DNA from: Rhynchobatus australiae
Lineage: Eukaryota
NCBI GenBank assembly: GCA_034780895.1
Contig: JAUZTB010000107.1
Location: 76,998,528 to 77,062,527 of the forward strand
Direction: 5' to 3'
Length of the DNA stretch: 64,000 bases
This document shows positions 3,801 through 51,300 of the stretch, one piece after another. The first letter of the stretch is position 1, and the number at the start of each line of letters is the position of its first letter. The translations under genes and the position numbers were made by a program. Under the pieces are notes generated by a model, which saw only the letters and a list, made by a program, of their open reading frames with translations, was not told the origin of the DNA and did not search any database.

Positions 3801-6800
3801 TTTGGGTGGTATCTTTATTACGGAAGGAGGTGAACACTTACCAATTCGCCAATGTTCATCCTAAATTCAAAGCTTCAAATTAGATTTGTTTCTAAATATT
3901 TTGTTTAAATACAAAGTGATTTGGGATTTAACCANNNNNNNNNNNNNNNNNNNNNNNNNNNNNNNNTAAATCTCCTTGTTGCTCAAGTAACCTTTAGAAT
4001 TTTGCCCTTCACTGTAAAATTGAGAAAAAATTATTAATATCAATGCCCATTATGGAGGCATTTTTTCAAAAGTGGAAAAAAAGCTAACCACAATGAAAAT
4101 TGCAGTTCTCAATAGCTGACAGCAGAGGGGTTAATTTCACCTAATGTCCTTGTGCTTTACAAGTGCTGTCCAATTTTATCCACTGACCACTCCCTTTTCC
4201 ACACAATGTATTAGCCAGTTGTCTGCCCATTTCAACAGGCCACTTATACTTCTCAATTCTGCTACTATCCTCCTCACTATTTATTACATTGCCAACTTTT
4301 GTACTGAGCACAAACTATGAAATCCAACTACCTAACCCTATTTTAAGGTCATTTAATATGCGTCTGGTAAAGTAAAGGCCTGATTATAAATCTTTGGGTC
4401 TCTCAAAGGATACTTCTTCCCAGACAACTAAACCAAGTCCTCCAAGTTACCACTGGCCTTTATTTTACTAGCACATTGGCTATATGGTACCTTAATCAAA
4501 AGAACAAAAGTATTGTTATGGTAAATTTATGATTAAAGGATACCTAACTTTGCAATAAAAAATAAAATTCTCATAAACTTTTACAAAGTTTACACCATTT
4601 GATAAAAATTCTATCAATATTATGATACATGTCACATCATTTTTTTCATACATTTGAATATGGATTACAGCATTTTCTTGAAATTGAATCCTTCATAACT
4701 TTTGGGTTTTGCAGATGCTTAACAACTGAATGCAAATACTACGTAGTTGAAGTAAGCTGATACAATTCATAAACCACATTTTAATATTTTAATTCACAAC
4801 ATTAATAAAGCAACATATAGATAGCAGTTTCTGCAAAGATAATGGAAACGTGCTAGCAGTAAGAAAGCAGATCGTGAATTGAACTCCAACTTAAGACATT
4901 TAGACTCTGCAGAACTTTTGGCTTCTCAAAAAGTATGCCTGCTGCCCTACTGAGGCTACTTGACAGTGATACAGGTTAGAAGCAAGCACATACAAGTCAA
5001 TGGATGGAGAATACTGCTGCCTAATCTCTGCAAAACTCATGACAATTGAGTAAAGCAAAATGCTGAAATGTTTCACTGAATATTTTAAAATAAGGAAAAA
5101 AAACTGAGAAAACTTGCACCATGTAAAAGCTAAACAATGCAAGATCACTAGTCTGGAGATAACTATGACCACCATAAATGTTCTATACTTGCAGTGTTCT
5201 GCATTTTTGTAACTACTGCAATAAAGATCACAGAATAGAATTTGTTTCTTAATTTACAATTAACCTGAGAATTTCATTAAGAAAAGAAAAAGTAATCTGT
5301 ACCTGGCCAAAAACACCAATCACTGATCCAGAAATGTCACTTAACACAATACTGCAGTCAGCTGAAGCAGAGAGAATTAGTAAATGACCATCCTGAACAC
5401 AAGTTTCAAGGTGATTAATACAATCTGAATGAGGTTGTGTTGCTGCTACCATTGGTGGAAGTTGCGTAATGACAACATCACTGTAATTCAAGCAGTAGTC
5501 CTAATTAGAAACAAACAGAAACATCACATGCAGCTTAATTCCTTTCGACAGGTTAAAAGGAATGATGTTCTTTTCATTGGGAAAGCAATGTTATCTGAGT
5601 AAAACTTTGCTTGTCTGTTTGCAAACTGAAAGAAAAATAACATTTCATCAACTACTTCTGGTGGGATAGAACATCCTAAACAAATAACTTAGATAATGAT
5701 ATGAGACTGAAGTTACACATTAAATAATATGGCACGTTTCTTTTCCCGTCATAAGATAGTTCAAATAGAAAACAGACTTCAAATCAGTGTTAATATTGAT
5801 TTAAATATTAAGGTCCGCACAAACATGAAAGATAATACACTTCTGTTTGTTGTTGTGGGCTGAAGTGAATTTCTGTGTCTTATGGTGAAACAGACAGCTT
5901 TCATTTTATTCAAAAGTAAAATCTGGGTCTCATTTCCCTATAGCTTATTACAAAAGTCAATGGAACTTTACAATATACAGAAAAAAATGCACCAACCAAA
6001 TAAATTACCTTTATCCATTATATTCAATTTATTATTGTAAAAGCATTACTTAATTTCTTGTGTAAAAATTCACAACAAAAAATTATTTGAATAGATTATA
6101 AATTCCACTGTGCTTGTGGGAAACATACTTCAAAAAAGAGTCCTCCTAAAGTGAAAAGAATCTTAGAAAATCACTGGTAGCTAATGATCTTCCCTCAGTA
6201 ATGGATGGAAAAATTATAAAGTCTGTTTTTTAATTTTTAATGATTTGCTTCCTGTTGGTGATGGGAGCAATCCTCTAAGATTCAGTACAATAAAATATAG
6301 ACACAACAGAGACTGCAAATGATGGAAATCTGAAGCAACACACACAAAATTCTTGATGANNNNNNNNNNNNNNNNNNNNNNNNNNNNNNNNNNNNNNNNN
6401 NNNNNNNNNNNNNNNNNNNNNNNNNNNNNNNNNNNNNNNNNNNNNNNNNNNNNNNNNNNGACTGCAAATGCTGGAAATCTGAAGCAACACACACAAAATT
6501 CTGGAGGAACTCAGCATCTGTGGAGAGAAATGAACAGTCGACATTTCAAGCTGAGACCCATCATCAGGTCTCAGCCCGAAACATTAACTGTTCATTTCCC
6601 TCCATAGATGCTGCCTGACATGCTGTGTTCCTCCAGCATTTTGTGTGTGTTACAATAAAATACAGTTAGTCTAGACACAAGAAGTGAAAGCAGGAGGTTG
6701 CCATTCACCCCCTCATGCCTTTTAATGTGATCATGGCTAATCATATTTAATCTCCGACTTCAGTGCTACTGTTCTGCACTATATCCCTTGATTCCCTTAA

Positions 6801-50589: not shown

Positions 50590-51300
50590 CAACTTTTCCC
50601 AATTTCCATTTCAGGGAATAGATACATGACCAGTAGCCATTAAAAGTCCATGAACTCCTATTACTACTTGATAGCACGTCATCCCTTCTTGGAAGGACTC
50701 AATTTCATTCTCCCATTTTCCACATCTGCTGAGCTTCCACACCACTACTTCCAATACATCTTTCTCTGCCCTTGACTATGCTTTCCCCTCTACCAAGAAA
50801 CAAATGTTTGAGCAACCCACCAACTATTTCTCAGATATTCAGTCTCACCGACACTCCTATCACAAAAAAGGATAGAGTTGCCTTCCCTCCTTCTCTCCCA
50901 CCAGCCTCCATATTCAATAGGTCATTCTCAATTTCTCCCAACATTATGCTATTGAGCCACCTCCCTGGTGCCATTGCAATCCATTCTTCCATCTCCACCA
51001 ATACTCAAATCTTTTCTCTAGGCAACTTCCTGTACAATTGCAGGCTGCAACATTTGCTCAAACTAAAGTCCAGGGACCCAAACACTCCTTCCAGGTGATG
51101 CAGCAATTTAATTACACTTCTAACAATTGAAAATACAGAATTCAACCTCTCAATACCATCGCCTCTACATACCAGTTCTGATGAAACAACATCAACCTGA
51201 AACCTTAATCCTCTTTCCCTCAATATATGCTGCTTGATCTGAATAACCCAAGCATTTTTATTCTTCAGTTTTCCAGCATCTACAATATTTTGCTTTTGGA
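50590..51300 (+). mobile_element. Penelope-like remnant ending in hammerhead-bearing pLTR
   Basis: A KDRVAF.. segment and a region resembling the reverse complement of 15440-15600; CAGTT-CTGATGA...CCT-GAAA at 51173-51202. Confidence 0.6.

Follow-up and report, generated by a model that had tools for sequence, protein, structure and literature searches.

Hammerhead ribozymes in the pLTRs of Penelope-like elements (PLEs), their dispersed and decayed copies, as well as the inverted form of PLE insertions, have already been published. The minimal hammerheads of these elements were reported, in the parts of the original description considered here, to exhibit no activity as monomers and low activity as dimers (Cervera and De la Pena 2014, PMC4209133). 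The PLE hammerhead of Anolis, the one tested together with its protein, does not cleave without that protein; the corresponding element, PAc, uses two start sites of reverse transcription, extends both strands and inserts normally in vitro when its hammerhead is mutated (Frangieh et al. 2024, PMC11167929). What the hammerhead does in PLEs was called unclear in that study and also in the relevant sections of Craig et al. (2021, 10.1101/2021.04.23.441226), according to which a Cys-rich motif between the reverse transcriptase (RT) and endonuclease (EN) is present in Nematis, too.

The window studied here, i.e. the whole stretch of 64,000 nucleotides from Rhynchobatus australiae, had been predicted to contain at least eight dispersed copies of a minimal type I hammerhead motif derived from Penelope elements. 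All eight listed stretches were found at the claimed positions and strands. A first profile, seeded with seven of them, detected extra copies, whereas the reversed window gave no match. The profile rebuilt from loci elsewhere (threshold E ≤ 0.05, reversed window as control) yielded 17 matches corresponding to about ten insertions, and again none in the control; among these, the match at 6298-6355 belongs to an arm already counted, which continues beyond an N gap. Five head-to-head pairs are present—at 6.5, 8.4, 14.8/15.8, 32.6 and 41.9 kb—each best read as a single insertion, so that the listed copies are not independent. The window is free of tandem hammerhead units, its copies being solo or inverted, and the scan of the window with Rfam gave no match to a hammerhead model even at E ≤ 10. 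The features are as follows, the copies added to the original list being marked as such:

6286..6300, plus strand: left target-site duplication, 15 nt, one mismatch to the right copy
6301..6574, minus strand: long-tail pLTR arm; core 11/11 at about 6535-6567; junction replaces the stem I 5' strand
6360-6459: N gap inside the 6301..6574 arm, with 6311-6359 duplicated across the gap
6566..6648, plus strand: short-tail inverted arm (added), starting within stem II, without the 5' core
6651..6665, plus strand: right target-site duplication
8347..8417, minus strand: pLTR arm (added), starting near the cut site, paired with 8478-8593
8478..8593, plus strand: pLTR arm (added), core changes A6>U and G12>A
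14727..14852, minus strand: 3' pLTR, type of the old subfamily B, with an altered C3 and N17=A
15053..15127, minus strand: pLTR segment (added), strongly decayed, without the 5' core
15219..15594, minus strand: remnant of a broken linker and GIY-YIG endonuclease frame (tblastn E 2e-12, nhmmer E 4e-16)
15792..15929, plus strand: inverted 5' pLTR arm, long tail, A6>U and A15.1>G
18473..18607, plus strand: decayed solo pLTR (added), three core changes
32549-32560/32759-32770: 12-nt flanking duplication of the 32.6-kb pair
32560..32688, minus strand: long-tail arm, tail of the A9C subfamily, three core changes
32698..32758, plus strand: short inverted arm (added), position 9 = C, 3' core deleted
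33260..33374, minus strand: 3' pLTR, B type, three core changes
33587..33800, minus strand: weak endonuclease-frame remnant upstream of the 33.3-kb copy (nhmmer E 2.4e-4, tblastn E 0.026)
38033..38095, minus strand: pLTR segment (added), strongly decayed, four core changes
41850..41896, minus strand: pLTR arm, core 11/11, stem II disrupted, tail entering an N gap
41919..42000, plus strand: inverted partner arm (added), C3>U and G12>A
48834-48846/48997-49009: 13-nt flanking duplication of the 48.9-kb copy
48862..49001, plus strand: solo pLTR of the A9C subfamily (master C at position 9, now U), G12>U
50892..51145, plus strand: RT-endonuclease linker remnant upstream of the 51.2-kb copy (tblastn E 2e-4)
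51171..51300, plus strand: 3' pLTR, B type, core 11/11, stem II disrupted

Three of the eight originally listed copies (6535, 41861 and 51173) retain all 11 core bases, each with stem I or stem II broken, and the remaining five carry one to three core changes apiece; every copy in the window is damaged and likely inert. The copies at 48.9 and 32.6 kb are of the A9C type. Flanking duplications accompany the pairs at 6.5 kb (15 nt, one mismatch) and 32.6 kb (12 nt) and the solo copy at 48.9 kb (13 nt); among the other sites checked in the window, three have none and two have just words of 7-8 nt, which were not counted.

Concerning the host genes, a WD40/EF-hand gene on the minus strand, which we take to be WDR49, reaches about 29.4 kb, its exons having been called from weak Pfam matches and by eye. 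The C-terminal exons of PDCD10 occupy 37366-37446 and 40502-40648 on the minus strand, and a serpin gene, presumably SERPINI1, starts on the plus strand at about 56 kb. The copies had been described as intronic or intergenic. This applies to the insertions at 6.5, 8.4, 14.8-15.9 and 18.5 kb, which fall between WD40-like exons, and to the 38.1-kb copy, located between the two mapped PDCD10 exons; the copies at 41.9, 48.9 and 51.2 kb are probably inside upstream PDCD10 introns. The intronic status is, however, unsupported for those at 32.6/32.7 and 33.3 kb, positioned in the interval that separates the last PDCD10 exon mapped (37366) from the first inferred WD40 coding exon (~29.4 kb).

A larger and unbiased set of copies was collected from five genes, in spans flanked by CUB exons of the same strand and totalling 1.2 Mb (880 kb without N), each span being assumed to belong to a single gene. 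The full profile recognised 204 segments there, i.e. 0.23 per kb (reversed control 0), which would extrapolate to some 0.4-0.5 million copies per genome. The tail-only profile found 187 copies, 107 of which cover enough of the tail and ribozyme for classification, and their assignment by tail columns alone resulted in five groups: subfamilies B (39 copies, 23% diverged), U4A (21 copies, 12%), A9C (22 copies, 11%), A1 (16 copies, 9%) and A2 (9 copies, 5%). The tree of 85 copies, calculated with the core columns removed, contains clades for A9C (14/14), A1 (13/14), A2 (7/7) and B (28/32), and no U4A clade. Core mismatches in the intron copies (131/1009; 13.0%) are as frequent as those in the tail (423/3231; 13.1%; p 0.96), indicating neutral decay after insertion. 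Among the 93 copies covering every core column, the core is retained in 14, six of which have the stems preserved as well; together with the listed window copies, not one of which has both core and stems intact, this bears out the expectation that the ribozymes are mostly decayed. A three-unit tandem was seen at one locus outside the window.

The predicted layout of a minimal type I hammerhead is visible at the level of consensus sequences. The core examined comprises C3 U4 G5 A6 N7 G8 A9 / G12 A13 A14 A15.1 / U16.1 H17; it is complete in the consensuses of A1, A2 and B, with A9C and U4A departing from it. The consensus motif folds into the stems, stem I being 3 bp in the A9C type, and the consensuses contain the palindromic 15.2-16.2 as well as the extra base before stem II, the 15.2-16.2 pair being C-G in four of them and CpG-decayed in B. 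The descriptor of intact core, stem II, palindromic stem III and NUH has at least 2249 exact matches in the genome, against none in the control. In a 28-row alignment, 75% of the stem I and II cells are paired versus at most 44% in slid controls. A compensatory change in stem I, also proposed originally, is real at the pair 2.1-1.1 (39 C-G, 25 U-A, 22 off-diagonal; Fisher p 1.6e-5), yet it reflects a single lineage split, the pair being C-G in four subfamilies and U-A in B; the pair 10.1-11.1, running through G-C, G-U and A-U, follows the same B split. Covariation of the stems did not exceed the shuffle control (156/500, 28-row alignment), and independent covariation is not upheld beyond the one split; the partner column of 2.1-1.1 is outside the top eight by mutual information, and CpG decay, which inflates the off-types, confounds the check. 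Across the five subfamily consensuses, 6/27 core and stem columns differ compared with 17/23 free columns (p 0.0005), pointing to constraint on the master copies, for whose motif the capability of self-cleavage is predicted.

The origin from a Penelope element, as proposed, is substantiated by loci elsewhere in the genome, where the motif follows an RT and GIY-YIG endonuclease frame. A 34-nt motif pattern has 186 exact matches in the genome. At one locus, a 205-aa frame upstream of the motif has GIY-YIG clusters as its nearest Atlas clusters (0.96-0.97), in which 13-60% of members carry PF01541; the same frame has about 54,000 first-look candidates genome-wide (150 scored). Behind the endonuclease frame, a same-strand motif was present at a distance of 58-342 nt in 12 of 30 fetched loci—one being the query locus itself and most of those lacking the motif ending at contig ends or N runs—and in six of seven longer stretches. 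RT motifs precede the endonuclease frame in several loci, with Pfam RVT_1 at E 0.0011, i.e. below the cut-off; the Pfam search of the endonuclease frames gave no GIY-YIG match and the PDB sequence search with the RT piece nothing relevant. The locus L048 is near full length with a broken frame; it has the order DKG motif, RT, Cys-rich linker, endonuclease, pyrimidine-rich UTR and hammerhead motif, interrupted by stops and shifts. The locus L011, a candidate full element, has two direct pLTRs 2234 nt apart with N between them, and there was no intact full-length element frame among the loci examined. The Cys-rich motif between RT and EN occurs in L007, L020, L030 and L048. Judged by its sequence, in which the hammerhead is followed by the tail, the element is an EN+ PLE and appears to be Neptune-like, a clade label taken solely from the Cys-rich linker, which Nematis has, too. 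In the window, three copies (14.8, 33.3 and 51.2 kb) retain a remnant of the frame or linker on their upstream side.

The anatomy of the insertions was followed in the intron sample. Their 3' ends are bimodal, one group being found some 60-70 nt and the other some 95-105 nt behind the cut site, with about 35 nt between the two end points. A head-to-head inverted partner accompanies 92/187 copies, the arms being less than 100 nt apart in 32/46 pairs; a long arm is joined to a short one in 35/44 pairs against 22 expected (p 6e-5; four more pairs unclassified), and a flanking duplication surrounds 13/51 pairs versus 1/51 controls. The bimodal ends and the long/short pairing match the published one-sided tail of 30-40 nt and two start sites of reverse transcription. 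Concerning the 5' ends, 41 of the 102 in the four younger groups are at -8..+2 of C3 and six at the cut site, the others being upstream (21), between (22) or further down (12); in subfamily B (n=70), the front edge of the ribozyme accounts for 20 ends and the cut site for two. Ten N-adjacent copies were left out of these counts, and the A1 end model was built on three sequences; the boundaries come from profile alignments of copies 5-23% diverged with pyrimidine-rich sequence upstream, so that some long copies may score as short. The position of the ends at the front edge, not at the cut site, suggests that the templates were likely uncleaved. The front edge, which to our eyes resembles an initiator consensus, may mark where transcripts begin; alternatively, synthesis may stall there at stem I.

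Based on the above results, the copies very probably represent the ends, truncated on the 5' side and made up of pLTR plus tail, of a Neptune-like Penelope retrotransposon whose masters carried a minimal type I hammerhead; their decay follows the background rate, and within host introns they are likely inert. In the mechanism envisaged, the element protein would nick both target strands, and uncleaved RNA would be reverse-transcribed from one of two start sites, some 60 and 100 nt behind the cut site. Synthesis would often stop at the ribozyme front edge, either because the RNA has its 5' end there or because of stalling at stem I, leaving stumps of 100-140 nt, and two such cDNAs joined head-to-head would give the palindromes. 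The ribozyme itself would be active solely in transcripts of the element, in dimeric form or together with the element protein, and insertion would not depend on it.

Two of the subfamilies deserve attention for their altered cores. Position 9 is C in 18/22 copies of the A9C group, and its stem II context has, among the 77 exact genome matches listed, 65 with C, seven with A, four with T and one with G. Position 4 is A in 13/19 informative copies of the U4A group, the 85 genome matches to its context comprising 68 A, 13 T, three C and one G. The background rate of such core changes is 2-2.5%, and 35/107 classifiable copies carry A9C, U4A or both. Each type has its own UTR, with frame ends upstream in some cases, and a comparison of an A9C copy with the contigs of four sequencing runs returned thousands of related contigs per run. 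The oldest (B) and youngest groups have the canonical core, suggesting that some selection for it persists. The wide spread of the two altered-core lineages, as read from their sequences, suggests that cutting may be unneeded for spreading. Tentatively—and at a little under an even chance—the genome would preserve a knockout experiment made by nature: two lineages with crippled cores (A9C, with its 3-bp stem I, and U4A) would have amplified no less well than the canonical ones, most insertions would be strong-stop-like copies of uncleaved RNA ending at the transcript start, i.e. the ribozyme front edge, and self-cleavage would be a brake or side function and not a step of copying. The literature searches on U4A/A9C hammerhead variants, on extra-base variants and on PLEs of sharks or rays retrieved no paper describing these subfamilies; the variants may be contained in Lunse et al. 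2017 or in the supplements of Cervera 2014.

It should be considered whether the altered cores still cleave. In the A9C type, the C would be bulged out and the A after it would take the place of A9, and U4A would be tolerated with the help of the protein, so that cleavage would still be needed. This is rather unlikely. In its favour, neither of the two subfamilies has changes in the rest of the core, in stem II or in the palindrome of stem III, the groups of highest and lowest age are canonical and some natural core variants have been reported to retain low activity (PMC3088659, in the portion considered); against it, the A9C stem I has only 3/5 pairs, the 5' ends avoid the cut site, and mutants of the Anolis hammerhead insert normally. 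The palindromes could also be taken for a non-autonomous foldback family in its own right, the units of which would be copied whole, in line with half of the copies being paired, mostly with closely spaced arms, and with the shared subfamily of both arms in 14/17 pairs. This reading is improbable: all five subfamilies make pairs, these grade into long forms with frame remnants (14.8-15.9 kb), an inverted arm plus a one-sided tail is the published form of PLE insertions, and the junctions vary from pair to pair; a fixed-junction family was rejected. Still a shade less probable is the conservation of the motif for another reason, such as a promoter or protein-binding sequence with an incidental likeness to the hammerhead. 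The tail 61-97 is about equally conserved between the masters (9/37 columns differ) and the stem I 5' strand is fixed while its distal partners drift, but the 11 core positions, NUH, extra base and palindromic stem III fit the published minimal hammerhead, the changes at 2.1-1.1 and 10.1-11.1 preserve pairing, and N7, N17 and loop II vary freely among the consensuses.

The least probable alternative, by a narrow margin, is that intact sense copies cut the host pre-mRNA, affecting WDR49, PDCD10 or other genes, as the original prediction allowed for. In its favour are the many genome copies fitting the intact descriptor, the two strictly intact sense copies (besides four antisense) in 880 kb of non-N intron, and the domesticated intronic hammerheads of amniotes (PMC6155905, as far as the part considered goes). 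The arms of four window pairs, however, fold with each other into long hairpins of -115, -93, -76 and -29 kcal/mol that bury the motif. Nor was a depletion of sense copies observed: the orientation in introns is 97 sense to 107 antisense (p 0.53; only a strong bias is excluded, strictly intact copies being few), 43 to 52 for unpaired copies (43/95) and 71 to 79 for the LINE control, and core mismatch is 15.4% in sense and 12.4% in antisense copies (p 0.20). The lack of an intact window copy, the burying hairpins, the absence of bias and the published inactivity of monomers together make intron cutting unlikely. The window copies do not resemble a domesticated intronic hammerhead of the RECK type, as they are without a stable stem III and none of them is intact. 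For the host genes of the window the outcome is a negative one, i.e. ordinary decayed repeats. Returning to the preferred reading of truncated retrotransposon ends, the genome offers about one pLTR end per 4 kb, five dated subfamilies and two altered cores, i.e. natural variants for testing the role of cleavage in spread.

As for the known systems, judged by the portions of the reports considered here unless stated otherwise, the motif resembles the min-HHR of metazoan PLE pLTRs (described by Cervera and De la Pena in 2014, PMC4209133) in being of type I with a stem I of 4-5 bp, and shares with it the extra base between 9 and 10.1, the palindromic 15.2-16.2, the presence of several consensus families in one genome, and the arrangement, for the most part as dispersed single motifs and in some cases as opposite-strand pairs 100-700 bp apart. 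The length of stem II (4-5 bp) counts as a difference, the core variant there is U3-A8 as opposed to U4A and A9C here, and the main results of that report do not name cartilaginous fishes; the density here, decayed copies included, is far above its 4,000-9,000 descriptor matches for coelacanth and Xenopus. The non-LTR retrozymes (Li et al. 2026, 10.64898/2026.07.22.740005), with one chondrichthyan among their genomes, also have PLE-derived type I hammerheads; unlike them, the window copies are solo or inverted and lack tandem units, by which their membership was rejected, and intron strand bias is absent here. Poseidon of Anolis, PAc (PMC11167929, full report), is similar in its two 3' end points behind the hammerhead, the use of both strands and uncleaved RNA as the template, the last being inferred in our case; it belongs, however, to a different clade and its biochemistry exists, whereas the present element is known from sequence alone. 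In PAc, the ORF starts inside the hammerhead. With insertions of the Neptune-clade EN+ PLEs (10.1101/2021.04.23.441226; PMC3846280), the copies share the 5' truncation, adjacent inverted head-to-head copy, a tail of 30-40 bp at one end only, target-site duplications, the DKG motif and the Cys-rich RT-EN linker; the accumulation of 5' ends at the edge of the ribozyme is described here, and not in the sections of those two reports considered. Finally, the vestigial palindromic stem III and the link to PLEs are common with the hammerheads of short stem III, for which cleavage in dimeric form is described (Lunse et al. 2017, through the review PMC6765202).

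Beyond the ribozyme itself, the tail of the pLTR (columns 61-97 of its profile) is conserved between the subfamily masters to a degree matching that of the hammerhead, and a hairpin is predicted for these columns in four of the five subfamily consensuses; the tail is a candidate element for protein binding or for the start of reverse transcription. The six nucleotides spanning the cut site are palindromic in the A1, A9C and B masters, with N17, the base preceding the cut, changing together with stem I position 1.1; the youngest subfamily, A2, lacks this palindrome.

In the window, identical stretches of 49 nt flank the 100-N gap on either side (6311-6508), likely representing a scaffolding duplication within a single insertion arm. 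The other repeats found there are the following:

59252-61036, plus strand, decayed LINE copy with CR1/L2-like RT
62294-63661, minus strand, decayed LINE copy with CR1/L2-like RT
24776-24983, 25501-25717 and 18017-18080, copies of a short repeat resembling a SINE
44035-44103, short tandem repeat with a 19-nt period

The two LINE copies, mutually inverted and 71-78% complementary, enclose a serpin exon at about 61.5-61.8 kb.

Elsewhere in the genome, the locus L048, known for its near full-length broken element, holds a copy whose hammerhead directly abuts an RT fragment (6586-6687, minus strand), the endonuclease and UTR being skipped; an internal deletion and a template jump are candidate origins of this junction. 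A direct tandem of three hammerhead ends, all young and canonical, stands at the locus L219 (491-640; contig G000:C1, about 2828190-2828340), with periods of 71 and 76 nt and an inverted RT fragment beside it. The spacer between the ends is non-tail sequence, confined, according to the genome search, to this single locus. Judged by its sequence, the layout of the tandem is retrozyme-like and would be dimer-competent.
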